Part shown: piece by piece, positions 15,378-55,791 of the stretch
How positions within the stretch are numbered: position 1 is the first letter of the stretch
Layout: each line of letters starts with the position of its first letter
Assembly (NCBI GenBank): GCA_963787835.1
Contig: CAWBEI010000002.1
Coordinates: forward strand, 928,001-992,000
Length of the DNA: 64,000 nt
Direction: 5' to 3'
DNA from: Ignavibacteriota bacterium
GTDB taxonomy: Bacteria; Bacteroidota; Ignavibacteria; Palsa-1295
Notes under the pieces: model-generated
Told to the model about the DNA's origin: nothing
Databases searched by the model: none
What the model saw: only the letters and a program-made list of their open reading frames with translations
Program-made: the position numbers and the translations under genes

Positions 15378-18300
15378 TTAGTGATTGACGATCTGGTAGT
15401 GGATCTTGAACGTACCAGTGCCAAACTGAGCGGCAGTGGTATAGACATCGAAGTGTCCTGTGTCGAATCCAGAGCCATTTGATGCGTCATTTCCTACGCT
15501 GACGAGTCCATTCGGTCCAGCCGTACTTGCTTCGACCGTAATAAGGATCGAGCTGTTAGAACGAACGAGCGTGTTATAGATCTGGATTTCCGTATTACCA
15601 GCGGCTTGGTCAGCAGCAGTAAGTACGTAGGTATCAGTCCATGCATCCTGAGGATTGCCAGCTTGTCCCGTGTTTCCGTTCGTACCGGAAACAACGTTAC
15701 CGCCAACGCCTGCTGCAGCATTACCAACTTCGAGAGCAACAGTTGCCGTCGAGCCAGTACCTTCAGCCATGATCCCGATTCCGGAAACAGAAGGACTGAT
15801 GTCGATGCCAGTGCCGCCTGTGATCCCTGTTACGGACTCACCGGTTGCAGCTCCGACACCTTCGATCGTCTCACCAGTACCCGCGCCGCCCATTCTCACG
15901 TCAACACCTGTACCGGCGGTCATCTCGACCAACGCACCCACAGAGGTTGCGCTATTCACGTTTTGAACTCGGAGGCCGCTATTACCAGCTCCTGTACCAT
16001 TGATCATGTTGACGTTCAAGCCTACAGCACTCGTTACCGGATTGCTGAAGTTGACATTCACGCCATTGGAATTGCTGAGCACGTTGTTCACGAGCACACC
16101 ATTACCAGTGTTCGAGCTTGCATCAACCTGAACTCCTGTGTTTGCACCGGAAGTCACGTTCACACCGACCGAACCATTACCCGAAGAGGTAATATTCGCA
16201 CCGATGTTTGAGAGTGTTCCAGAGCCATCTACGCTTGCGGTGATGCCTGTGATGTTCGTACCGCCGCCTGCTGCATTGAATGCACCTGCTACCGCTGTAT
16301 TACCAGCGTTCGTTGTGGCAGTTGCAGAGATAGCAGTTACATTGCCGCCGCCGTTGGCCTGCGCACGAAGTGCGGTGCCACCATTCGCTGTGTTATCGGC
16401 CGCTACCGCGTATGTGCCAGCAATGTCGCTAAAGCCCATGTTCGCTGCGTTGACAATGTTGGTTGGCAAAGCAAACGATGCGTTCGTGGTGCCAAGCACT
16501 CCGTAGTTATTGGCTGCGGCAGTAACGCCATCTAATCCATAAATGCCGGCTGCAAAGGCAGTCGTATTTGGAACATATCCAAACACGCCGATACCATACG
16601 AACCTGTACCTGAATTTATACCGCCAACAGCCTCACCCTCTTCCTGATTGGTTTCGCCATAGACGCCTGAGCCAATTGCATCATTGGAAGGAACTGTCAC
16701 GCCGTTAAGGCCCATAACACCTGCTGCAGGTGCACCAGCCGAATTCTGCAAGCCTACGATTGCAACGGAGCCTGCTGCGCCTGTGTAGGAGCCCGCGCCA
16801 TTAACTGATGCCTGAACGCCAAGCCCTGTACCAGAGAACGCAACATTCACGCCGGTTCCAGTTGCGCCGCCCGAGTAGTTAAAGCCGATTCCCGTACCAG
16901 TCGAACCGTCGTAGTTTACGCCGGTTGACGTACCCATCGCCGTAAGTTCAATGCCCTCACCCGTCGGAGCACCGGTGATATCAATACCACCGGTTACGCC
17001 GGCAACATTGATCTGTTCTCCAAACGATGTAGCAGGGATGGCGTTGACAGTCAAGACTGGTGTTCCACCCGTCGTCGTTGAACCGTCCATCGTCATCGAG
17101 CCACCTGGCGTGTATGGGTCAGCAGTATTGAAGTAGATCTGGGGAGCTGCAGCACTTGTCGTGAAGTTTGCCACACCTGCCGCAGTGATCCACCAATTCG
17201 ACGTTCCTGGATGACCGATCGCCGTGGTGAAATTACCCGTGGTGTTAATCGTAGTGTTGCCGAGAACAGTGTTTGAACCGTTGATGGCATTTGTACCGCC
17301 AGAGTTACCAATGGTGTTCGCAGCGCTAGTTCCTGTGCCGAACGAATTCGTAGCGTTAGCTCCTGCGCCAAACGTGTTGGTCAGACCGGCACCCGTACCG
17401 ATCGTCGAGGCACCCGAAGAGGTGATCGTTGTGAAGGCACCAGTACCTGGTGTTGCCAAACCGATATGGGTAAAGTTTGCCGAACCCGTTGGGCTGACAT
17501 TCCATGTGTTACCCGTACCGGTGACATCGTACGTCCCAGTACCAGTCGTAGCGATGGTCAATGCATTCTGTGTACCCGTTGCATTAATCTGCTCGCCGCC
17601 GGTAACAACCAGCGCATTGCTGTTGCCATTGTTGGCGACCGTAAGTGCCGTTCCTGCATTCGCAGCCTGACCCAAGAGAGATCCTTGCGCCAAACCAGTG
17701 TAGCTTCCAGAGGTATGCACGAGCGTTACGCCGGTGTTACCAAGCTGGATCTCATTGGCAGTGCTGACGCTCGCGCCAGCACCAAGTGCCGTTGAATTGG
17801 TCGCGCTGGCACCAGCCGCTTCGCCGAGGGCAGTAGAACCGCTGCCACTTGCCCCTGCGCCTTCACCCAAGGCAGTAGCATTGATGTTGCTGGCGGATGA
17901 TGTAGCACCGATCGCCGAAGATTGAACACCACTCGCATCCGCATTTTGGCCAACAGATACCGCAGAGTTTGCCGTGGCATAGGCATCAAAGCCGACCGCT
18001 ACGGCACTGCCGCCGGTCGAACTTGAAAACGCGCCAACCGCAACATTATCACTCGTAGAACCTCCCGCCGCATCGTATCCAAAGACAGCGTTGGAACCTC
18101 CCGTGGCAGTTGCCAATGCGCCAACAAGGATATTTAGCGAACCAGGGTTTGAAAGCACCGTCGTGCCGCCGATTTGGTAGAGACCGGTCGTAGCAGTGGA
18201 GTTGCTTACACCTCCCGTGTTAACGTTTGTCAGCGTGGTGATGAGGGCGCTAGCCGAGATCGAAGTTGGAGCGCCAGTGATATTGATACCAGTCGTTGTT

Positions 18301-21300
18301 GCATTGATCGCAATGCCGGTTCCGAATGGATCAATATTAAGACCGGTTCCGCCGCCGCCTGCGCCGCCAGTGATCTGAACGCCGTTGCTGCCAGCAGCAG
18401 CTCCACCGTTGATCTGCTCCGCATAGATGCCGTTAGCAGATGTGCCGTTGATCGTAACCGTCGGCACCGTCGTGTTCCCGTTGACATTGAATGTCATCGA
18501 GGTATTCGCAGTGTAAGACTGTGCATTGTTAAATGCAATGTTCGGAGCCGAAAGCAATGCTGCCCATACGTTACCGGCATCGACCGTGGCGGAGTAGATT
18601 GTACCCGTCACTTCTTCGTCGCCAGCGATGACCGCCTCGAAGTTGTTCAACGCGAACGGAGCAGCCGGTAGCGTACCTGCGCCCGCCCATGCCGTTACAA
18701 CGCCATTGATGTCGAGCCAGGTCTGATTGGTGCCTGCACCGATCGTGGTCAGAGCAGTACCCGTAGTGTTGATGTTGGTAATTCCAGTGACGGTCGAGGT
18801 GCCGTTGATGGCATTCGTGCCAGTCGAATTTCCAAAGGTATTAATTGCACCCGTACCCGCACCGAAGGTATTGGTCGTTCCAGCGCCCGTTGCAAGGGTT
18901 GTGTTGCCGGACGAAGCGAGCGTCGTGAACCAAGCCGCCGCAGGTACCGTGTTGCCAATGATCACATTGTTCATGTGCGTGGCAAGCCCTGCTCCAGGGA
19001 CGCCAGGAGCCCCGGGGGCTGCGTAGGATCCCAAAATGTCGTCAACAACATTGATCGGCGTGCCAGGCACGTACCCACCAAGATTGTGGAAGTAACCGTT
19101 CTGCGCCTCGATGGTCGTTGCACTGAATGCATTTGTTGTGAATGTTCCGGAGACGTTTACGTCGCCATTGACCACAACTTCATAGCCGCCAGATGGGACA
19201 GCGCCAACCAAGGTTGGAACACCGTCCACAACCAACTTCGTACCGTCCGTCGTAGAGCCACCGTCGATGACAACTTTACCGTTGAGATCATTGACTGCGA
19301 AGTTACCGGTTTCTGCGAGATTATCGTCGCCATAACCGATGGTGTTGGTCGTGTTTGCACCTACACCGATATTATTCGTGGTACCGGCTCCGCCGCCAAT
19401 GGTATTGGTTGCGCCAGTGCCATTGCCGAACGTATTCGTGAGGCCGTTACCCGTTGCAATATTAGAATTGCCCGATGAGCCGAGCGTTGTGAACGCACCG
19501 GTGCTCGGCGTTGTCGCGCCGACAGAGGTGTTATTGATCGTTCCGCCCGTGATCGTGAAGTTCGATCCGGAAACGTTATTGGCTCCGAACGACGCAGTGC
19601 CGTTAAAGGTCGAATTCCCATTGACGGTGTTCGTGCCGTTGATGGTGTTCGATCCACCAGAAGCGCCGATGGTGTTGACAGCGCCGATTCCCGTGCCGAT
19701 CGAGTTAACGTCGCCCGAGTTGTTACCAAATGTATTGACCGTGTTAGCGCCCGAACCGATATTCGAGTTACCGGTCGAGTTGAGAATTCCGTTATCCTGA
19801 ATTCCGTTGACTGTGAATAGTCCGGTCACCGTGAGCGTACCGCCGACCGTGGTGTTACCACTCAGAGTACTTGTACCGCCAACAGAAAGATTACCGCCCG
19901 CAGTAACGTTGCCCGTTGTTGCGGTGATGTTGCCGGTTGTGGAGGTGATGTTGCCAGTCGTGCTGATGGCACCAGTGTTCGTAATACCATTTGTGGTGAG
20001 CGAACCAACGACCGTTGTGTTGCCGGTCAGATTGGTTGTGCCGCCAACCGTGAGATTGCCGTTGTCAGTGATGTTACCAGCCGTGGAGAGCGCGCCGCCA
20101 TCAGTGATTGCGCCACCCGTCGAAAGCGTACCGCCATCGGTGATGTTGCCCGATGAAGTAAGCGTAGCAGTGGAAATACCGCCAGAGTTCGTGATGCTCG
20201 TCGTGGTGAGCGCACCAACCGTAGTAGCACCCAATGTGCTCGTGCCCGTAACCGTAAGATTACCGCCATCGGTAATGTTGCCAGTCGAGCTAAGCGTGCC
20301 AGTCGAGATAGCACCTGTGTTCGTGATACCGTTAAAGCTCTGGCCTACTGTCCACGTGTTCGCATTGTTGGTGTTGAGCGAAATGCTTCCGCTGCCGCCG
20401 AGCGATACCGGCCATCCACCAAGATTGATCGAACCATTGCTTGTAGCGCCGATCGTGGAGTTCTGCAGCTTTGCGTTCGTTACCGAACCGTTGGCAAGCT
20501 GTACCGATCCGATGCCGCCAGGAAGAATATAAAGATAATTTCCGTTGGCAACCCCAGTTACGCCGATCGTGCTGTTGTCAACATTGACATCGAGTAAGCC
20601 CGCCGCATCTTGCAGAAGGCCGATACCCGCGATACCGCTGATCTTCTGGCCGGTGACCGCGCCAGGAGGAATCATCTGACCGGTGATAGCACCAGGTCCG
20701 ATAGAAATGCTTACTGCACCAGTAGAAGCGTTCTCAACAAGTCCGCCGCCAGCCGTTAAGCTGCTGACGCCTCCGCTTGCGCCACCGATCGTGACCGTAT
20801 TACCAACGGTGGTAACCGTGATCGGCGCAGTTCCTTGAATGACAAAGTTGCCATTGGCATCCGGACCCTGACCATTGATGGTATTGATGGTCCCGGTTGC
20901 GAGAAGATTGTTCGGAATTCCCTTTGGAAGGAATCCGGGGTCGAGCTTGGCAGTCCCTTCGTATCCTTCGCCGATCGGCACCGGGAAGAGATCCCCAGCA
21001 ACAGGCACAGGCGAAGCCTGAATGCCGTTAACTGCTCCGGCGTTGACCGCATAGGGTGCGGACCAAAGCTCGGTCGGAGCGAGGGTGGTCAGACCGCCTG
21101 GAGTGGAAACCACAACCTGCATGAGGTATTGTGAGTTGAACGTCACGCCAGCAGGGAACGGAGCCGTAGCGCCGCCAATGACCACATTAAAGATACCACC
21201 GGCAACGGTCACAGACGGAATCGTTTCCGTATAGATCGGAGACGATGTGCTTTGGTCGATGAGGGTTATCGTGAGGGTAACAGTGCCATCGGGAAGTGGC

Positions 21301-21428
21301 AGACCATTCTCCTCTAAAAGTCCCTGATACGTGAACCCACCGGGCACATCTGCCTGAGCGGATGGAGTGCCAAAAAAGAGTGCGGCACCAAGAGCAAGAC
21401 CCATTAACCACGAACGACGTGATTTCAT
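15378..21428 (-). CDS. Giant secreted Gly/Thr/Asn/Ala-rich fibre/adhesin-like protein (2016 aa)
   Basis: Signal peptide (..PSAQA/DVP), FTYQG...SAPYA N-terminal domain, beta-strand repeats, YadA-head-like A.A.G repeats; AAGGAG SD before ATG. Confidence 0.85.
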   Translation of the reverse strand: MKSRRSWLMGLALGAALFFGTPSAQADVPGGFTYQGLLEENGLPLPDGTVTLTITLIDQSTSSPIYTETIPSVTVAGGIFNVVIGGATAPFPAGVTFNSQYLMQVVVSTPGGLTTLAPTELWSAPYAVNAGAVNGIQASPVPVAGDLFPVPIGEGYEGTAKLDPGFLPKGIPNNLLATGTINTINGQGPDANGNFVIQGTAPITVTTVGNTVTIGGASGGVSSLTAGGGLVENASTGAVSISIGPGAITGQMIPPGAVTGQKISGIAGIGLLQDAAGLLDVNVDNSTIGVTGVANGNYLYILPGGIGSVQLANGSVTNAKLQNSTIGATSNGSINLGGWPVSLGGSGSISLNTNNANTWTVGQSFNGITNTGAISTGTLSSTGNITDGGNLTVTGTSTLGATTVGALTTTSITNSGGISTATLTSSGNITDGGTLSTGGAITDGGALSTAGNITDNGNLTVGGTTNLTGNTTVVGSLTTNGITNTGAISTTGNITSTTGNITATTGNVTAGGNLSVGGTSTLSGNTTVGGTLTVTGLFTVNGIQDNGILNSTGNSNIGSGANTVNTFGNNSGDVNSIGTGIGAVNTIGASGGSNTINGTNTVNGNSTFNGTASFGANNVSGSNFTITGGTINNTSVGATTPSTGAFTTLGSSGNSNIATGNGLTNTFGNGTGATNTIGGGAGTTNNIGVGANTTNTIGYGDDNLAETGNFAVNDLNGKVVIDGGSTTDGTKLVVDGVPTLVGAVPSGGYEVVVNGDVNVSGTFTTNAFSATTIEAQNGYFHNLGGYVPGTPINVVDDILGSYAAPGAPGVPGAGLATHMNNVIIGNTVPAAAWFTTLASSGNTTLATGAGTTNTFGAGTGAINTFGNSTGTNAINGTSTVTGITNINTTGTALTTIGAGTNQTWLDINGVVTAWAGAGTLPAAPFALNNFEAVIAGDEEVTGTIYSATVDAGNVWAALLSAPNIAFNNAQSYTANTSMTFNVNGNTTVPTVTINGTSANGIYAEQINGGAAAGSNGVQITGGAGGGGTGLNIDPFGTGIAINATTTGINITGAPTSISASALITTLTNVNTGGVSNSTATTGLYQIGGTTVLSNPGSLNILVGALATATGGSNAVFGYDAAGGSTSDNVAVGAFSSSTGGSAVAVGFDAYATANSAVSVGQNADASGVQSSAIGATSSASNINATALGEGAGASGSGSTALGEAAGASATNSTALGAGASVSTANEIQLGNTGVTLVHTSGSYTGLAQGSLLGQAANAGTALTVANNGNSNALVVTGGEQINATGTQNALTIATTGTGTYDVTGTGNTWNVSPTGSANFTHIGLATPGTGAFTTITSSGASTIGTGAGLTNTFGAGANATNSFGTGTSAANTIGNSGGTNAINGSNTVLGNTTINTTGNFTTAIGHPGTSNWWITAAGVANFTTSAAAPQIYFNTADPYTPGGSMTMDGSTTTGGTPVLTVNAIPATSFGEQINVAGVTGGIDITGAPTGEGIELTAMGTSTGVNYDGSTGTGIGFNYSGGATGTGVNVAFSGTGLGVQASVNGAGSYTGAAGSVAIVGLQNSAGAPAAGVMGLNGVTVPSNDAIGSGVYGETNQEEGEAVGGINSGTGSYGIGVFGYVPNTTAFAAGIYGLDGVTAAANNYGVLGTTNASFALPTNIVNAANMGFSDIAGTYAVAADNTANGGTALRAQANGGGNVTAISATATTNAGNTAVAGAFNAAGGGTNITGITASVDGSGTLSNIGANITSSGNGSVGVNVTSGANTGVQVDASSNTGNGVLVNNVLSNSNGVNVNFSNPVTSAVGLNVNMINGTGAGNSGLRVQNVNSATSVGALVEMTAGTGVDVRMGGAGTGETIEGVGAATGESVTGITGGTGIDISPSVSGIGIMAEGTGSTATVALEVGNAAAGVGGNVVSGTNGNTGQAGNPQDAWTDTYVLTAADQAAGNTEIQIYNTLVRSNSSILITVEASTAGPNGLVSVGNDASNGSGFDTGHFDVYTTAAQFGTGTFKIHYQIVNH

Positions 21429-23657: not shown

Positions 23658-24646
23658 TAGCCTTCCCCGGCGGGTGCAAGTGGTTTTTCGCGGCGTTTAC
23701 GTAAAATTCGTTCCATCACCTCCGGCCCGAGCAAACCCTGCGGACGTGTGATCATCAAGATCACGAGCAACAGCGAATAAATGATCATGCGATAGCTCGG
23801 CACCGAGCGCAGAAGCTCCGAGAGCGTCGTCAGCACGATCGCTGCAAGGATAACGCCGATCGTCGAACCCATGCCACCTAAAATCACGATCACAACAATA
23901 TCGATCGAAGTGAGAAAGGTAAAATCGAGCGGGGTAATATTATAATTCGAGTGCGCGAAAAGTCCACCGCCCATTCCGGCGAAGAACGCGCCGATCACAA
24001 AGGCACGCACTTTAAACTTGGTCGTATCCACACCCATCGCTTCGGCGGCTACTTCATCATCGCGCACGGCGAGAAATCCGTGTCCGTAGGTGGAGTTCAC
24101 CAAATTCTCCACGCAAAAGATCGTGATGGCCGCAATAATGAACACCCATGTGAACGTCGTGAGTGGGAGCACGCTGAATCCGCGCGCGCCGCCAATGTAA
24201 TCCACACCATCGATCTTGAAATCGACGTTCTGAATAATGACTCGAATGATCTCATTGAACCCCAGCGTGACAATGGCAAGATAATCGCCGCGCAGACGCA
24301 AACTGGGAATTCCCACGCCGAGCCCCGTTACCGCCGCCAGCGCACCACCGGCCACCAGCGCAATGAGAAATCCAAAAATTCCCATCAAGCCATCCATTGC
24401 GTAACCGTGCGTGCTGAGATAGGTTGTTATCACAGCGGACGTGTATGCTCCCACCGCCATGAACCCTGCATGGCCCAGTGAGAACTGCCCCGTAAACCCA
24501 TTGATGAGGTTCAGGCTCACCGCCAGCGAGATCATGATGCCGATATAGATAATGCGGCCAACAATATAATCGTTGATGAACGGCGTGACGAAGGATACGC
24601 CGATAATCACAGCGATCGCAAGGAAAAGCCAGCGGTAGGATTTCAT
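23657..24646 (-). CDS. livM: Branched-chain amino acid ABC permease
   Basis: GQFSLGHAGF, LRLRGDYLAIVTLGF, GGMGS. Confidence 0.9.
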   Translation of the reverse strand: MKSYRWLFLAIAVIIGVSFVTPFINDYIVGRIIYIGIMISLAVSLNLINGFTGQFSLGHAGFMAVGAYTSAVITTYLSTHGYAMDGLMGIFGFLIALVAGGALAAVTGLGVGIPSLRLRGDYLAIVTLGFNEIIRVIIQNVDFKIDGVDYIGGARGFSVLPLTTFTWVFIIAAITIFCVENLVNSTYGHGFLAVRDDEVAAEAMGVDTTKFKVRAFVIGAFFAGMGGGLFAHSNYNITPLDFTFLTSIDIVVIVILGGMGSTIGVILAAIVLTTLSELLRSVPSYRMIIYSLLLVILMITRPQGLLGPEVMERILRKRREKPLAPAGEG

Positions 24647-25551
24647 CAGACTTTCTCCACCTCCCGCTTCCCTAACAACCCGCTTGGCTTGAAGACGAGG
24701 ATCAATATCAATATTGCAAACGCGATGGCATCTCGATAGGTAGAAGCTGCTGTGCCGGAGACGAACGTCTCCACCAGTCCGATGATCATTCCGCCGAGCG
24801 CAGCGCCGGGGATGTTGCCGATGCCGCCAAGCACGGCGGCGACGAAGGCTTTGAGTCCTGGCAGGATTCCCATGAGCGGTTCGATGCTGGGATATTCTGT
24901 ACCATATAATACCCCGCCCGCGCCGGCAAGCGCGCTGCCGATGATGAAGGTGAAGGTGATCACTCGGGAGATGTTAATTCCCATCAAGCTTGCGGCTTGC
25001 TGGTTGTAGCTTACGGCGCGCATGGCCGTGCCGATCTTCGTTTTCATGACGATCACGCGCAAAAGAAGCATCAACACGAAGGAAACACCGATCACCACCA
25101 CTTCCACGGTGCCGATGGTAAGGTATTTCGTATGCACGATAGGATTATTCGGAATGATCGCTGGGAACCCGCGAGGATTTGCAGTAAACACAAGCTGTCC
25201 GGTGTATTCCAAAAAAAGCGAGACGCCGATCGCTGTAATCAGCACGGTCAGCTTTGGACGCTTACGCAAGGGGCGGTAGGCAAGGAACTCTATCGTAGCG
25301 CCAAGCGCGGCGCAGACGGTCATCGAGATGAGGAACACAAGGATCGTTGATTCGACACTTCCGACGGGAAAGAAATGGTTCACCCAGCTCGTTGCCGCAA
25401 AATACCCGACATACGACCCGATCATGAACACATCGCCATGCGCGAAATTGATGAATCGCAGCACGCCGTAAATCATCGTATAGCCGAGGGCGATCAGCGC
25501 GTAGATCGCGCCGAGGGAGATACCGTTTATTAATTGCTGGAGGAATTCCAA
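24646..25551 (-). CDS. livH: Branched-chain amino acid ABC permease
   Basis: YALIALGYTMIYG..INFAHG, KAFVAAVLGGIG; TTG 25551 start preferred. Confidence 0.9.
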   Translation of the reverse strand: MEFLQQLINGISLGAIYALIALGYTMIYGVLRFINFAHGDVFMIGSYVGYFAATSWVNHFFPVGSVESTILVFLISMTVCAALGATIEFLAYRPLRKRPKLTVLITAIGVSLFLEYTGQLVFTANPRGFPAIIPNNPIVHTKYLTIGTVEVVVIGVSFVLMLLLRVIVMKTKIGTAMRAVSYNQQAASLMGINISRVITFTFIIGSALAGAGGVLYGTEYPSIEPLMGILPGLKAFVAAVLGGIGNIPGAALGGMIIGLVETFVSGTAASTYRDAIAFAILILILVFKPSGLLGKREVEKV

Positions 25552-25558
25552 AGGAGTA

Positions 25559-26141
25559 GAACCGGGATTACGCGGATGGAAGGGGATTACGCGGACGATT
25601 AAGAGGATTATGTAGCTTGGGAATGTTTGGTTCAAGCATCGGAGCTTTGGAATTGATCATTCGCTTAAATTCTAAACTCGTTGATCCAAAATTAATTAGA
25701 AGTCCTACCCGAAGTTTGTACGCTTCCAGATAGTTCTTCGCTTGTGCGAGATGAATGTCTTCCAAGGCAACCACTGCTTTTAGCTCAACGGAAACGCGCT
25801 GTTCGACAAGAAAGTCCACTCGACGAGATCCTACTATCTGTCCTTCATACCGAATCGGCATTTCGTATTCCCGCAAAAAGTTAAGACCTTCTTTGGATAA
25901 TTCAATGCCCAATGAGTTCTGATAAACAACCTCCTGAAATCCACAGCCGAGATTGCTATGCACTCGCATGGAACATCCGATGATCCGCTTCGTCAATTCT
26001 CCATCTTCAAATTGAGAATCACTTCGCCGCTCGCTTGAAAGGTTACTATCCCTCATTGGTAACTTTAAATACGAACATTAAATAAAAATCAAATCCAAAA
26101 ATCGTCCGCGTAATCCCATTTAATCCGCGTAATCCTGGTTC
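25559..26141. mobile_element. Candidate minimal mobile element: 42-bp terminal inverted repeats around a GxxExxY gene
   Basis: 25559-25600 and reverse complement of 26100-26141 match at 38/42 (GAACC.GGATTACGCGGAT.....GGGATTACGCGGACGATT); interrupts livK-livH. Confidence 0.65.
25568..26056 (-). CDS. GxxExxY protein (PD-(D/E)XK nuclease superfamily)
   Basis: LGCGFQEVVYQ, RRVDFLVE...VELKA, H.AQ..NYL, GLLINFG. Confidence 0.92.
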   Translation of the reverse strand: MRDSNLSSERRSDSQFEDGELTKRIIGCSMRVHSNLGCGFQEVVYQNSLGIELSKEGLNFLREYEMPIRYEGQIVGSRRVDFLVEQRVSVELKAVVALEDIHLAQAKNYLEAYKLRVGLLINFGSTSLEFKRMINSKAPMLEPNIPKLHNPLNRPRNPLPSA

Positions 26142-26147
26142 AAACCC

Positions 26148-27338
26148 TTATGGCTGAAACGGCGTCATCGCCTCCCCATTCGGCCCTATGCGCTGGGCGA
26201 AGTGGAACTTTCCATTCGTGATCTTGATGATCGTGATCGGCTTCGAGGCATTGCGGTATTTGTCGATCGTGATGTTGCCGGTTACGCCGGGGAAGTTCGT
26301 CGTGCTGGAAATGGCTTTCATCAGCTTGGTCGAGTCTGTCGAGTGCGCGCGGTTCATCGCATCCACGAGAATGCGCGTGGCATCGTATCCGAGCGCCGCC
26401 ATGGCATCGGGAACCGCATGGTATTCATCCTGATACTTTTTGATGAAGCTCTGCACCGTGGTATCCGGATCTTCCGTCGAAAAGTGATTCGAGAAGAACG
26501 TGTTGTTGAACTGCTGCTCGTTGCCTTTCGTGAGTTCGGGGGAATCCCAGCCGTCGCCGCCCAAGATGGGGCAATCGATGCCCAGCTCGCGCGCCTGACG
26601 CACGATGAGCGCAACCTCTGTATAATATCCCGGCACAAAGATGACTTCCGGATTCGCGCCTTTGATGCTTGTGAGCGCCGCGTGGAAATCCTTATCGCCG
26701 GAAGAATACGATTGCTCGCTTACGATCGTACCGCCATTGAACGTAAAGGTATTCTTGAACGCATCATCTAAGCCAACGGAATAATCCTGCTTGACATCCG
26801 TAAGAATCGCCGCGCGCTTTTTGCCGAGCGAGTTCATCGCGAACCGCGCCATTGTCTGACCCTGAAACGGATCGGTAAAGCAGATGCGGAAGATATAATC
26901 GCCCTTTTTCGTCACGTCCTCGTTCGTCGAGGCGGGCGTGATCATCGGGACGTGCGCGGACTGGCAGATCGGCGCACCGGCCATCGAGCGGCTCGAAGCC
27001 ACTTCGCCGAGCACCGCAACCACGCGGTCCGAATTCACGAGCTTTTGCACGCTTGCGACCGCATCTTCGGTTTTGGACTGATCGTCCTCGGTCATCAGGT
27101 CGATCTGCTTGCCGAGCACGCCGCCCGCAGCATTGATCTCGTTGATCGCAAGCACATCGCCCTGATGCACCGACTGCCCGAACGTAGCCGTCCCGCCCGT
27201 CAGCGAGGCGAACTCGCCCACGCGGATCGTATCGCCGCCCGGCCCGCCGGACTTTTTGCAGCTAACGAACGTCAGCACCGCGCACAGCGCCGTTAACGCA
27301 ATGAAATTGTTTCGATTAAGGTAAGAAATGGTCTTCAT
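26148..27338 (-). CDS. livK: Branched-chain amino acid ABC substrate-binding lipoprotein (LivJ/K family)
   Basis: Lipobox FVSC, EINAAGGVLG, YIFRICFTD, GGDGWD, GYDA; ATG 27338. Confidence 0.85.
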   Translation of the reverse strand: MKTISYLNRNNFIALTALCAVLTFVSCKKSGGPGGDTIRVGEFASLTGGTATFGQSVHQGDVLAINEINAAGGVLGKQIDLMTEDDQSKTEDAVASVQKLVNSDRVVAVLGEVASSRSMAGAPICQSAHVPMITPASTNEDVTKKGDYIFRICFTDPFQGQTMARFAMNSLGKKRAAILTDVKQDYSVGLDDAFKNTFTFNGGTIVSEQSYSSGDKDFHAALTSIKGANPEVIFVPGYYTEVALIVRQARELGIDCPILGGDGWDSPELTKGNEQQFNNTFFSNHFSTEDPDTTVQSFIKKYQDEYHAVPDAMAALGYDATRILVDAMNRAHSTDSTKLMKAISSTTNFPGVTGNITIDKYRNASKPITIIKITNGKFHFAQRIGPNGEAMTPFQP

Positions 27339-27431
27339 AAGTGTAAATGGAATGTGTGGTCGTAATTTCCTTAATGCAAAAATACGATTAAATATGGGAG
27401 GGGCGGGGGATTTGGGTATGAGAGAAGGTAC

Positions 27432-27469
27432 GGGTGACCATTTTATCGACGCCGATAAAATGGTCACCC
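27432..27469. terminator. Perfect 17-bp hairpin (probable terminator or palindromic repeat)
   Basis: GGGTGACCATTTTATCG-acgc-CGATAAAATGGTCACCC. Confidence 0.55.
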
Positions 27470-27492
27470 CAGAGAAAGCTATCATTCTTGAG

Positions 27493-27693
27493 TTACGGCA
27501 TGTATAGATCACCGTTCTCAACCCAGTAGAATTTCCCGTCAGGCTTTCGAACTGCGGTTGTTGTCCAGGTTTCGAAACCGTGAGTTTGCAATGCGAAGCA
27601 GATGTACATGACAGATCCTGCGTCCGTGCTTGTGATGCGACCGTAGTGTTTCCCATCGCGCCGCATGTCGATAATTTGGAGTTCTTCTTGCAT
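27493..27693 (-). CDS. Small hypothetical protein divergent from the XRE gene
   Basis: 66-aa ORF from ATG 27693; no recognisable motif. Confidence 0.5.
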   Translation of the reverse strand: MQEELQIIDMRRDGKHYGRITSTDAGSVMYICFALQTHGFETWTTTAVRKPDGKFYWVENGDLYMP

Positions 27694-27733
27694 GGTTTTA
27701 ATTTGATTAAAAGTGGAGTTTGAAAAAATGAGT

Positions 27734-27794
27734 TTCACATATATGTGAAACATGAATTCCGAAGGGACGTTCCCCGATTTCACATTTAAGTGAA
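27734..27794. promoter_or_regulatory. Two TTCAC-N6-GTGAA operator boxes
   Basis: TTCACATATATGTGAA (27734-27749) and TTCACATTTAAGTGAA (27779-27794) upstream of the XRE gene. Confidence 0.7.
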
Positions 27795-27824
27795 TTTATT
27801 TTTGGTTGAGTGGGTTCGAGGGGT

Positions 27825-28055
27825 ATGCCATCATCAACCCGACTTTTTCAGCAAAAGCACAAGGCGCTTATTAAGCGACTGGAGGAAGTTTTGGCTAAGA
27901 AGGAATGGACTCAGCGAGACCTTGCAAATGCCACCGGACTGAAAGATTCTGCAATCAGTCGAATAATGCATGGTAATGCGAATCTTACATTGAAGACGAT
28001 TAGCTTGCTTGAGGATCGCTTGGGGGAGCAACTCATCAATGTTTCAGAAGTATGA
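27825..28055 (+). CDS. XRE/Cro-family HTH regulator (controller-protein-like)
   Basis: WTQRDLANATGLKDSAISRIMHGNANLTLKTI; GAGGGG SD. Confidence 0.85.
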   Translation: MPSSTRLFQQKHKALIKRLEEVLAKKEWTQRDLANATGLKDSAISRIMHGNANLTLKTISLLEDRLGEQLINVSEV

Positions 28056-28125
28056 CTTTATACGTTGTGAAGATTTTTCTGTCCGCTCTTGCGTTCTCCA
28101 ACTTGAAGGATCAATTTTAGCAGGC

Positions 28126-29262
28126 ATGAAAAGTCTTAAGACTCTATCTTTATTTTCTGGAGGGGGTGGGCTTGACCTCGGATTTGCCGCGTCCGGCTTC
28201 AAAATACTGGCATGCGTAGAAAAGGATCCATATTCGTGCAACACGCTTAAAATCAATGCTGGCCGAAGAAAGTTCCTTGACAAACCATTAATCATTAATG
28301 AAGATATAACAAAAGTAAACGGCGCCTCAATTATTAAAACCCTTGGACTTAAGGTGGGTGATCTTGATCTAATAATTGGTGGGCCACCATGTCAGGCGTT
28401 CTCGGTATTTGGCAGGCGAGCGGGACTTTCTGACCCGCGAGGAAACCTAATTTGGGAATACCTTCGATTGATTCGAGAAACGATGCCAATGAGCTTTGTT
28501 CTGGAAAACGTTAGTGGGCTTAAAACAATAGATGACGGAAAGCTTTACCTTCAGCTCCTTGAAGCTTTAACGTGTGATGGTCAATACACTGTTTCGGCAC
28601 AAGACTATCACGTTGCTAATTACGGAATACCGCAATTTAGGCATCGGGTCTTTTTTGTGGGTCATCGGAAGGGCAAAATACTTCCCCGCATGCAAGAGTC
28701 GCATGGCGACTCCAATCTATTCGGAGGACTGATTCCATACGTTGCTTCAGGAGATGCGCTCAGGGGCTTACCGAAGCCTGGACCGTCTGTTGGCATAGCG
28801 AATCATATAGGACGCTTGCACAGTCCAGTAATAGTGCAAAGATATCGAGGCCTCCGATTCGGTGAAAGAGATCCAAAAACGCGAATCAATAAGCTTGATC
28901 CAGAAAGGCCAAGTTTTACCATAATAGTTGGATCAGACGCAGGTGGAGGAAAAGGACATGTCCATCCTTATCAGCCGAGAGAGGTCACACCGCGAGAGTC
29001 CGCACGCATGCAGACTTTTCCCGATTGGTGGGAATTTTACGGTCAGGGCCGACACGTTATTAGGCAAGTTGGCAATGCAGTACCTCCCTTATTCGCGGCC
29101 CAACTGGCCCAGCATCTTCTCAGGCACTTTTTTGGGGTAAGAAATACCCTAAATTATTCAGAATTAGTGGAGCTACTTGAGTTAAATTATTTAGAAAAAT
29201 GCTCACCGACCTCTTCAGCCACAAAATACATTCGAGCACGGAAACGTGGCCAGATAAGCTAG
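28126..29262 (+). CDS. DNA (cytosine-5)-methyltransferase
   Basis: Motifs I FSGGGG, IV GGPPCQ, VI ENV, VIII PQFRHRVF, IX RESARMQTFPD, X QVGNAVPP. Confidence 0.95.
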   Translation: MKSLKTLSLFSGGGGLDLGFAASGFKILACVEKDPYSCNTLKINAGRRKFLDKPLIINEDITKVNGASIIKTLGLKVGDLDLIIGGPPCQAFSVFGRRAGLSDPRGNLIWEYLRLIRETMPMSFVLENVSGLKTIDDGKLYLQLLEALTCDGQYTVSAQDYHVANYGIPQFRHRVFFVGHRKGKILPRMQESHGDSNLFGGLIPYVASGDALRGLPKPGPSVGIANHIGRLHSPVIVQRYRGLRFGERDPKTRINKLDPERPSFTIIVGSDAGGGKGHVHPYQPREVTPRESARMQTFPDWWEFYGQGRHVIRQVGNAVPPLFAAQLAQHLLRHFFGVRNTLNYSELVELLELNYLEKCSPTSSATKYIRARKRGQIS

Positions 29263-30740
29263 TCGAGCTAGCATTCATTTTCGAGGAGTTCGATGGACTT
29301 GAATATAGCCGAGATGCTATAGAAGCCCGGCTCCGTGAAATAAGCCCTCGTTTTACCTACGCAAGCTTAGCCCACGGATCAGTTCGTGATCAATCAAAGT
29401 TCCGAGACGAAATCAGTGCATATCCAGCGTATCTTGGGCTATATTCGCTGGTAAACGAAGACAGTAAATGGATCCTACGGCTTTCGGAGACAGCTAGAGC
29501 TTGTCTTATCAGAGAAGAGCCCGATGTCTCTGCGTTCCTCCGACTTCAATTGCTTTTATTTCAGTTCCCGAATGGAAGTGGAGCAACTTACTCCCATGAT
29601 CATGTTTCGATTAAACCGAATGCTGCATCTAAGACACTTGAATACATCCAAAATGAAATGCATGTGTCGCCGATGAGGCTAATTACATGTGCCTTAGCTG
29701 CTGATGCGAAACTTAGAGAGGTAGAAATTCTCAATGCTAAAGCTGATTATTCCGAAATTTACTTTCTCGCTAATGACGCAACGGTGAGAAAGCACGCCTT
29801 ACCAAATATCAATCAAGTCGCTTCGAGACTTGATGAATTCAGACGCTCTGACCGCAGACTACCCTTTCATTTTGAGCGGCGCTTTCATTTGCTGAAGCAT
29901 ACTGAGATTTTCGAAATCAATGCCGGCGGAATAACTTTTAGAGAAACGGAAGGAGTCGAAGACTCCACTAATCTCAAAGCGAAGATCGAAGCTATACTAC
30001 GAGAAAAAGTAGAGTTCAGAGGATTTGATCACTCGCGCAGTGCAGCAGAGATTGGAAATGTTGTGAGAAGCGGAACATGGGGAAAGTATTTCGACGGCGT
30101 GCAGTCCCTCTCAGCTTCTACCGTCGAGATTTTAGGTGTATCGGAGCTTGCAACAAGAGAAATTGCTATCGACCGTCGCTTGCCAATTCAAACTGCCGCA
30201 ATCCAACCTCGCTCCGATGAATTACCATTCAATTATCCATGGAGAGACTTTCAGCCGCTCACGCCATCTGCCAACCCATCATCATCACGCACTAGGGGTC
30301 AATACGCAGACCCAGAGGTCACTAGAATAAAGTTACAGAGAAGAAATCTGACACATAAGATTCTCCTCGGCAAAATAGATGAATTGCTAGCGACTCACAA
30401 TGCAAGAACCCAAGAAACAGAGCATATCGATCTATTTGCTTCCATTCCTAACGACGGATCATTCCTTTTTGAAGTCAAAAGTGGAGGGGAGAACCTATTA
30501 GATCAAATTCGAAAAGGTATTAGCCAACTGTATGAATACCGCTATCGGTATGCATCTGCCGTTCCGAATGATGTTCATCTGTGTCTTGTCTTGGGTGAAC
30601 AGCCAATTCGTGTGCCATGGGTCAAAGACTATCTGATTAATGACAGGGGAATTGCGCTCTGCTGGGTTAATCAGGACGGTGTTTTTGAATATCCGGCGGC
30701 TTGCGCTCATGCTCTCGACCCTCTTTTCGGAAGAGGTTAA
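29199..30740 (+). CDS. Putative restriction endonuclease (C-terminal PD-(D/E)XK)
   Basis: Overlaps the MTase end; HIDLF...FEVKS...QIRKGISQLYEY nuclease-like C-terminus. Confidence 0.6.
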   Translation: MLTDLFSHKIHSSTETWPDKLVELAFIFEEFDGLEYSRDAIEARLREISPRFTYASLAHGSVRDQSKFRDEISAYPAYLGLYSLVNEDSKWILRLSETARACLIREEPDVSAFLRLQLLLFQFPNGSGATYSHDHVSIKPNAASKTLEYIQNEMHVSPMRLITCALAADAKLREVEILNAKADYSEIYFLANDATVRKHALPNINQVASRLDEFRRSDRRLPFHFERRFHLLKHTEIFEINAGGITFRETEGVEDSTNLKAKIEAILREKVEFRGFDHSRSAAEIGNVVRSGTWGKYFDGVQSLSASTVEILGVSELATREIAIDRRLPIQTAAIQPRSDELPFNYPWRDFQPLTPSANPSSSRTRGQYADPEVTRIKLQRRNLTHKILLGKIDELLATHNARTQETEHIDLFASIPNDGSFLFEVKSGGENLLDQIRKGISQLYEYRYRYASAVPNDVHLCLVLGEQPIRVPWVKDYLINDRGIALCWVNQDGVFEYPAACAHALDPLFGRG

Positions 30741-54605: not shown

Positions 54606-55763
54606 ATGAAAATCGCCAAACTGATACTTCGGAACGTATTTCGGCATAAGCTGCGCGCGTTCCTTACGATCCTCGGGGTAGCCATTGCCGTCATGGCATT
54701 TGGATTGCTCCGCACGATCGTGACATCCTTTTATGCCGGCGCGGATGCTGCTTCGCCAGACCGGCTCGTTACGCGTCATGCCGTTTCGTTCGTTTTCCCA
54801 CTTCCGCTGGCAGACCGTGAGCAGATCCTTCGAATTCCCGGTGTGAAAAACGTCACGTTCGAAAACTGGTTCGGCGGTCAGTATATCGACAGCAAACATT
54901 TCTTTCCTCGTTTTGCCTGCGATCCGCAGACCTTGTTCTCGATCTATCCAGAGTATGAAGTTCCACCGGACCAACTGGAGAATTTCAAGAAAGAACGTGA
55001 CGCCTGCATTGTTGGACGAAAGCTAGTCGAACAATATCACTTTAAGCTCGGCGATATTATCACGCTGACAGGGGATATTTTCCCCGGCCAGTGGCAATTC
55101 GTCGTTCGCGGCATCTATAAAGGAAAAGAGGCTGCAACGGAAGAGAATGCGCTGTTTTTCCACTGGGATTATTTGAACGAGTCACTGCTCAAAACTGCGC
55201 CCGGACGCGCGAACAATGTAGGGTGGTACGTCGTGCAAATCACGAATCCGAACGATGCGGCAAAGATATCGCAACAGGTAGACGCCCTGTTTACTAACTC
55301 GATCGCGGCGACCAAGACCGAGACCGAAAAAGCATTCCAGTCGGGTTTTGTTGCGATGTCCAGCGCGATCATTACTTCACTGCAGGTAATCTCGTACGTG
55401 ATCATCGGCATTATTTTCCTGGTGCTTGCAAACACCATGATCATGACGGCCCGCGAGCGCATCCGCGAATATGCAGTTCTGAAAACATTGGGCTTTACCG
55501 GGCAGCATCTCATCATACTTATTTTCGGGGAATCGCTTTCGATCGCTGTCTTCGGCGGGATTTTAGGAATGTTGATCACGTTCCCGATCGGAGCAGGGTT
55601 TGCGAAGGGCATGGAGAATTTCCTTCCACGATTTGTGATCGAACCGCAAACGCTTATCATGGCGGGTATCTTTGCGATCCTCGTAGGAATTATTTCCGGG
55701 ATCTTCCCCGTCAATCGCGCTCTGAATATGAAAATTGTCGATGGACTGAGACAAGTAGGCTGA
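54606..55763 (+). CDS. ABC permease (FtsX/MacB type)
   Basis: R..LRAFLT, ERIREYAVLKTLGF. Confidence 0.9.
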   Translation: MKIAKLILRNVFRHKLRAFLTILGVAIAVMAFGLLRTIVTSFYAGADAASPDRLVTRHAVSFVFPLPLADREQILRIPGVKNVTFENWFGGQYIDSKHFFPRFACDPQTLFSIYPEYEVPPDQLENFKKERDACIVGRKLVEQYHFKLGDIITLTGDIFPGQWQFVVRGIYKGKEAATEENALFFHWDYLNESLLKTAPGRANNVGWYVVQITNPNDAAKISQQVDALFTNSIAATKTETEKAFQSGFVAMSSAIITSLQVISYVIIGIIFLVLANTMIMTARERIREYAVLKTLGFTGQHLIILIFGESLSIAVFGGILGMLITFPIGAGFAKGMENFLPRFVIEPQTLIMAGIFAILVGIISGIFPVNRALNMKIVDGLRQVG

Positions 55764-55785
55764 ACCTGGATTACGCGGATTAAAT
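55762..55785. repeat. Solo partial copy of the GxxExxY element terminal repeat
   Basis: GAACCTGGATTACGCGGATTAAAT, 23/24 identical to the reverse complement of 26118-26141. Confidence 0.75.
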
Positions 55786-55791
55786 ACGACT

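Follow-up and report, generated by a model that had tools for sequence, protein, structure and literature searches.

Terminal inverted repeats around one gene, accompanied by short gene-less derivatives, characterize TIR insertion sequences and MITEs, and TnsA and XisH are accessory to a transposase or recombinase that is a separate protein. For the REPtron/REPIN-RAYT systems, the available portions of the literature describe RAYTs as keeping one site within a species (PMC3733652; 10.1101/2021.07.10.451892; PMC5581495). In the accessible part of PMC3424549, the PD-(D/E)XK proteins tied to mobility are TnsA, XisH, YhgA-like, PDDEXK_2 and I-Ssp6803I, homing endonucleases of the same superfamily are listed, and PDDEXK_3 is entered as a family of unknown function with multiple transfers; that part of the text makes no link of the mobility-tied families to repeat arms. 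No work connecting the GxxExxY family to repeats was found in the open literature, and the REPtron/TIRtron supplements of PMC3733652 could contain related cases.

Based on comparisons within and between genomes, we propose that a GxxExxY gene located between livK and livH belongs to a REPtron-like selfish cassette that would be moved by its own predicted PD-(D/E)XK nuclease in conjunction with host repair, a reading to which we assign a probability of roughly 0.6. The cassette occupies 583 bp (25559-26141) of the 64,000-nt window, i.e. the whole stretch of DNA analysed here (Table 1). Alignment of its ends bears out the initial annotation, which had described inverted repeats at both termini: the two arms agree at 38 of 42 positions when one is reverse-complemented, and each contains two GGATTACGCGGA units spaced 19 bp apart (25565 and 25584 on the plus strand, 26105 and 26124 on the minus strand). 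In the window this 12-mer is matched five times against 0.37 expected, and five or more matches were reached in 0 of 100 shuffles. The sole gene encodes a GxxExxY protein, as previously noted, scoring above both curated cut-offs (TIGR04256, 134.9 bits, cut-off 35; PF13366 PDDEXK_3, 128.4, cut-off 22), with the stop codon (25568-25570) and the final ten codons falling inside the left arm. These two families are the only ones matched by the cassette gene, with no DDE or other transposase match; no partner gene besides GxxExxY lies within the cassette, and no direct repeat flanking it was found, in agreement with the earlier description of a segment devoid of transposase, recombinase and obvious target-site duplication. 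The flanking genes are liv-like, their top NCBIfam matches being LivH and the Liv binding protein, both below the curated cut-offs.

Table 1 Positions in the window of the livK-livH cassette, its neighbours and a related solo half arm
Feature	Position	Strand	Remarks
Host livH-like permease	24646..25551	-	Start (TTG, 25549-25551) inferred from relatives, which have ATG/GTG at the equivalent place
Downstream arm, by livH start	25559..25600	+	Inverted copy; contains the GxxExxY stop; ends 7 nt ahead of the inferred livH TTG
GxxExxY predicted PD-(D/E)XK nuclease, 162 aa	25568..26056	-	Core at about residues 17-137; last 10 residues arm-encoded
AT-rich 5' leader, upstream arm to GxxExxY ATG	26057..26099	-	18% GC across the 38 nt measured
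Upstream arm, by livK stop	26100..26141	-	GAACC end, then two GGATTACGCGGA units; terminal AAC starts 8 nt past the livK stop
Host livK-like branched-chain amino-acid binding protein	26148..27656	-	Extent is that of the listed ORF, whose true start is probably later; stop codon, 26148-26150
Solo half arm, same arm family	55761..55781	+	Supplies the TGA stop codon of a MacB/FtsX-type permease gene

A chance hairpin or an assembly artefact behind the cassette was rejected because the related genome G002 carries the entire region at 89% identity. Contigs from 4 of 17 read runs include one from a soil run that spans livH, the cassette and the end of livK with 167 differences over 1,464 nt, and none with a joint skipping exactly the cassette; a 190-nt contig from an RNA run lies inside the GxxExxY gene with 1 difference, which is too weak to count as expression. 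Elsewhere in the window, the region directly upstream of livK (27493-30740) holds a small HTH gene, a DNA cytosine methyltransferase-like ORF (28009-29262) and a 513-aa ORF, possibly a restriction-modification island as read from motifs, and a protein of 2,016 aa that is rich in Gly, Thr and Asn and has a signal-like N terminus (15378-21428, minus strand) is probably a large secreted surface protein.

The protein was modelled from an alignment (pLDDT 84), and model and alignment together display a restriction-endonuclease-like fold with a conserved E...D...E-x-K arrangement. The top Foldseek matches are Cas4 SSO0001 (E 2e-4, TM 0.42) and lambda exonuclease, while VIA gave middling scores for BpuSI (Z 8.3, rmsd 3.4, 97 aligned) and SSO0001 (Z 7.9, rmsd 3.1, 100 aligned); by sequence profile, no relative of solved structure was detected at E up to 1. 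As modelled, GxxExxY resembles Cas4, lambda exonuclease and the nuclease domains of restriction enzymes, a likeness of fold and not a demonstration of function. E42, D81, K93 and Y109 are invariant in 128/128 GxxExxY sequences, and E91 and Q105 are present in 127/128. The putative catalytic residues E42, D81, E91 and K93 and the Q105-x3-Y109 motif are intact in the livK-livH copy; we take these conserved residues to be the PD-(D/E)XK site and the RecB-type QxxxY motif.

The arms of the cassette are two of about 67 matches of a dispersed, genome-wide repeat and not ends private to the cassette. The genome-wide count suggested in the initial annotation gave 60 exact occurrences of GGATTACGCGGA in the 3.57-Mb assembly, and a profile built from 33 arms of this genome returned 77 matches at E<1 (67 at E<0.01; a few are halves of a single arm) and zero in the reversed genome. 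The family is built of ~9-bp GAT units, the distance from one GAT to the next being most often 9 (122 of 257, in 112 arms), and its terminal consensus, TCTG-AAC, extends about 4 bp beyond the cassette ends (TCTG preceding AAC), where the livK-livH copy is degenerate. In sixteen inverted pairs the two arms lie within 700 bp of each other; 13 of these pairs enclose no gene, two enclose GxxExxY genes and one a GNAT gene. The remaining arms are solo. Each of the genome's three GxxExxY genes is armed, with a separate arm subfamily for each (33, 11 and 18 copies, gene-borne ones included). Ten gene-less pairs have spacers of sufficient length for comparison, and these are mutually unrelated; therefore no replicating miniature unit was found. 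Across 44 arm pairs, target-site duplications of 3-8 bp show no clear excess over shuffled pairing, and those of 2 bp are slightly raised (7 vs 4.3); eroded duplications are possible because the copies are old. One gene-less pair (G000:C2:890681-890841, L109) sits at a synteny break, its flanks lying on different contigs in G002, G006 and G014.

On the basis of ORF predictions from a simple script, 67 of 69 arm ends fall outside ORF interiors and 31 of the 69 anchored ends lie at -3 to +12 nt from an upstream stop codon, compared to 3% of random intergenic places. Such placement would also suit a function of the arms as RNA: base pairing between them in the operon mRNA would loop out the gene and juxtapose the livK stop with the livH start, and GxxExxY would bind or process the stems as a domesticated post-transcriptional regulator. 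The two cassette arms indeed pair in the predicted mRNA fold (z -4.1 vs 20 shuffles), and analogous inverted heptamer-type flanks accompany the 23S rRNA IVP genes of this genome. However, pairing in the transcript is expected of any inverted repeat, solo arms, which are unable to pair, are common, the fold of GxxExxY resembles DNases, and a required regulatory function is hard to square with a junction at which one repeat family readily replaces another or the occupant disappears altogether. We consider this RNA function improbable.

Inverted arms are almost a constant companion of GxxExxY genes. A PF13366 search of the class yielded 96 matches (94 loci) in 41 genomes, from which 71 loci were taken, 51 of the 54 in the family (among them all 36 of the genus) and 20 of the 40 elsewhere in the class. 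An inverted-repeat score of at least 30 was obtained at 64/71 of these loci (50/51 in the family) as opposed to 19 of 636 control small ORFs of this genome. In other genomes, arms flank 50 of 77 scorable GxxExxY loci and 0 of 139 shifted windows (the sample being the best 80 loci from a scan of species genomes, with 3 left out for short flanks). Protein identity tracks arm similarity between loci at different sites, with rho 0.61 for 62 loci and 0.32 for the 34 of the genus, and also in the other genomes (rho 0.25, 49 loci; permutation p 0.001 in each case). In addition, at 21/31 genus loci the arm is nearer that of the closest protein, in another genome and at another site, than the arm of any paralogue in the same genome. 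Hence two expectations of the initial annotation, that GxxExxY genes are routinely flanked by inverted repeats and that the repeats covary with the protein, are upheld, and the lack of flanking-repeat enrichment that it had named as counting against its proposal was not observed. Such covariation of gene and arm is also expected from simple joint inheritance, which would yield it as well.

The 16 top control matches include the three GxxExxY genes, six Y1_Tnp genes, one DUF559 gene, two 23S rRNA IVP genes and the GNAT gene. The Y1_Tnp genes (IS200/RAYT-like; L265-L267, L269-L271) have inverted flanks, none of them like the GAT arms. Inverted AT-rich heptamer-type arrays flank both 23S rRNA IVP genes, which encode four-helix bundles (G000:C2:1266666-1267031 and 1462684-1463046; L272, L273). 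The DUF559 endonuclease gene (G000:C2:1483372-1483737, L268) has long inverted flanks of its own (score 85) and is a candidate second nuclease-plus-repeat cassette.

The GNAT acetyltransferase gene lies between arms of the family studied here (G000:C2:202185-202746, L113; also L155). Its homologue in G009 sits at another locus, again with arms beside it, and at the original site in four relatives the arms bound 2.1-4.6 kb of variable DNA (0.6-4.6 kb over all). Because this gene too is found between or beside such arms, bracketing alone does not mark the mover. Moreover, G009, G006 and G014 hold 40, 25 and 11 arms of the livK-livH type, and their assemblies (98, 80 and 91% complete) yielded no GxxExxY gene with matching arms. 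These observations are those anticipated if the arms were a REP-like repeat moved in trans by a Y1/RAYT-type transposase, or by host recombination, with GxxExxY a frequent passenger of other function; the genome has at least six Y1_Tnp genes, and the livK-livH junction draws several repeat families. Yet arms at 64 of 71 loci, of a different type in each clade, are not expected of a passenger, the six Y1 genes examined have other flanking repeats, and single arms, unlike REPs, do not fold as hairpins (z -1.69, -0.79 and -0.94, i.e. -0.8 to -1.7). Genus genomes that carry the matching gene also have more arm copies (p 0.03 for the livK-livH arm type and 0.004 for another; these genomes are kin and not independent). 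We therefore regard a mover acting in trans as unlikely. The likening to RAYT/REP in the initial annotation, in which the nuclease may spread its own repeats, fits; a correction to that annotation is that arms are also found around GNAT and in genomes that lack a matching gene.

The distribution of sites is in line with a cassette moved by its own nuclease and host repair. By shared flanking proteins the 36 genus loci form 21 site groups, a count that may be too high at contig ends. A set of four proteins, in which three share 84-93% identity with the fourth, occupies four different sites with similar arms, and, conversely, one junction holds two distant GxxExxY clades, whose arms differ, in different genomes (L040 and L066 vs L049, L058 and L080; L103 vs L104), which in terms of sequence is repeated invasion of that site. 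Where callable, the upstream neighbour is co-oriented at 49/60 and 56/61 GxxExxY loci vs 317/471 controls. At three loci (L051, L057, L061) the cassette lies just ahead of a gene that reads, by its sequence, as an obg-like GTPase, with arms that overlap the adjoining stop and start codons and differ between genomes. The nearest named homologues of the protein belong to Candidatus Kapaibacterium/Kapabacteria and Bacteroidota, and the family is estimated at ~14,000 stretches in the species-genome collection. Homologues occur on 8 of 72,556 plasmid records, none was found among 50,697 phage records, viral contigs gave one weak match, and neither PADLOC nor Rfam returned a match.

At the livK-livH junction, the cassette is present in four of 15 genus genomes (G000, G002, G004, G012) and in none of the seven other-genus family members having both genes on one locus. 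The junction is empty or otherwise filled in ten genus genomes, and G005 is split across two contigs. An empty junction, which the initial annotation had proposed to look for, was found in G011, with stop and start overlapping, and the opposite outcome, all relatives carrying the gene without repeats, was not encountered. Heptamer-type repeats fill the spacer in G006 and G008. Five genomes (G009, G014, G001, G003 and G013) have a TGTCATTCCCGC hairpin there, accompanied in G013 by a remaining half arm, and G007 and G010 contain other DNA of 1.5 kb. A second junction (55761-55791), between two MacB/FtsX-type permeases, was located in 11 of the 15 genomes: G005 holds a 604-nt cassette and G007 one interrupted by a contig end, G000 has a solo left half arm and G013 a solo right half arm, four genomes have 2-7 nt and three have 19-23 unrelated nt. 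Similar turnover of occupants was seen at ten further arm sites compared in four close relatives, and at C2:839298 five genomes show four different occupants, including two arm pairs with unrelated spacers.

The patchy occupancy of the livK-livH junction (4/15) could also arise from a cassette resembling a homing endonuclease, whose nuclease would cut the empty stop/start junction of a sister allele and be copied in by gene conversion. PD-(D/E)XK homing endonucleases are known (PMC3424549, accessible part), and the proteins of G000, G002 and G004 form one clade (99/90), yet G004 is distant on the livK+livH tree. In contrast to the single fixed target site expected for each enzyme lineage, however, similar proteins, of 84-93% identity, occur at unrelated sites, and one site is shared by distant proteins. 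The cassette is no younger than its flanks, homing leaves the arms and dozens of gene-less copies unexplained, and remnants resembling arms, seen in G013 and possibly G003, point rather to loss. Homing is thus highly improbable as the source of these cassettes.

Between G000 and G002, GxxExxY has dN 0.044 and dS 0.62, with dS 0.27 for livK and 0.91 for livH; judged by these rates, the livK-livH copy is under purifying selection. Recent transposition of this copy was rejected, its dS falling between those of livK and livH, and it is an old resident, apparently vertically inherited. G012 sits on a long branch of the GxxExxY tree, and monophyly of the four livK-livH copies is neither rejected nor demonstrated (p-AU 0.48). 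The simplest reading is an old insertion followed by repeated loss or replacement, and transfer of the cassette between lineages is possible. No recent move of any cassette was seen, and moves between sites must be old because synonymous sites are near saturation among copies at different sites. The minimal mobile element put forward as a candidate in the initial annotation has partial support, and that proposal needs revision in that the arms are copies of a dispersed repeat and the livK-livH copy is old and apparently vertical.

What the analysis establishes at the sequence level is a comparative pattern only: the architecture, the dispersed arms, presence and absence among relatives, the many sites, the tracking of protein by arm and the missing duplication. 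We propose the following sequence of events for a cassette moved by its own nuclease and host repair. The GxxExxY nuclease, expressed from the host operon transcript, would bind the 9-bp GAT units of the arms and cut at the conserved arm ends, whereupon host repair would place the cassette into a new gene junction. Integration is assigned to host repair because, to our knowledge, no hydrolytic PD-(D/E)XK enzyme performs strand transfer alone. Cassettes would persist mainly at tight stop/start junctions, where an arm may often provide the stop codon, and would later decay to gene-less pairs and solo arms. The livK-livH unit is accordingly a likely gene-carrying member of a slow selfish element, and the armed GxxExxY cassette likely an undescribed kind of selfish DNA. 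A broader proposition is more tentative, and we hold it at somewhat less than even odds: GxxExxY, a PD-(D/E)XK protein of ~120 residues, would by itself make up the enzymatic machinery of a new mobile DNA class. It would read arrays of 9-bp units, carry its own cassette and gene-less copies to stop/start junctions with no duplication of the target, and have diversified in DNA specificity clade by clade, as a non-HUH counterpart of RAYT/REPIN in thousands of genomes.

GxxExxY is a very common family without assigned function, for which the arms supply a concrete candidate substrate, and the three paralogues and three arm subfamilies of this genome form a built-in test of specificity. If GxxExxY is the mover, a new enzyme class joins the prokaryotic repeat-spreading systems, a large dispersed repeat family is explained, and a tiny nuclease with natural specificity variants becomes available. 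Otherwise, an explanation is still needed for why gene and arms are paired almost universally.

In comparison to TIR insertion sequences and MITEs, the cassette is alike in its terminal inverted repeats, its one gene and its gene-less derivatives; it differs in that neither a DDE transposase nor, across the 44 arm pairs, a target-site duplication accompanies it, and in that the arm family has no near-identical copies and its spacers are unrelated. TnsA, XisH, YhgA-like, PDDEXK_2 and I-Ssp6803I share the PD-(D/E)XK superfamily with GxxExxY, but TnsA and XisH differ from the cassette, which has no partner gene. The TAACTGA heptamer repeats near start codons (PMC4679880, accessible text, in which the word 'nuclease' does not occur) likewise form short direct-unit arrays in tight intergenic positions, also in Bacteroidetes, but have units of 7 bp, whereas the arms have units of 9 bp. 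To the extent covered by the available portions of the REPtron/TIRtron and REPIN-RAYT literature (PMC3733652; 10.1101/2021.07.10.451892; PMC5581495), those systems share with the present one a small single-domain nuclease gene between inverted repeats, dispersed doublets devoid of a gene in which the arms are conserved and the spacers vary (13 of 16 pairs being gene-less here), several repeat-specific genes per genome, long persistence and rarity on plasmids. The differences are that the enzyme flanked here is a PD-(D/E)XK protein and not an HUH/Y1 transposase, and that the arms are arrays of ~9-bp direct units and not hairpin-forming palindromes. With respect to the vertical inheritance at one site described for RAYTs in the same portions of that literature, the livK-livH copy fits, whereas the GxxExxY family as a whole holds the 21 site groups among the 36 genus loci.
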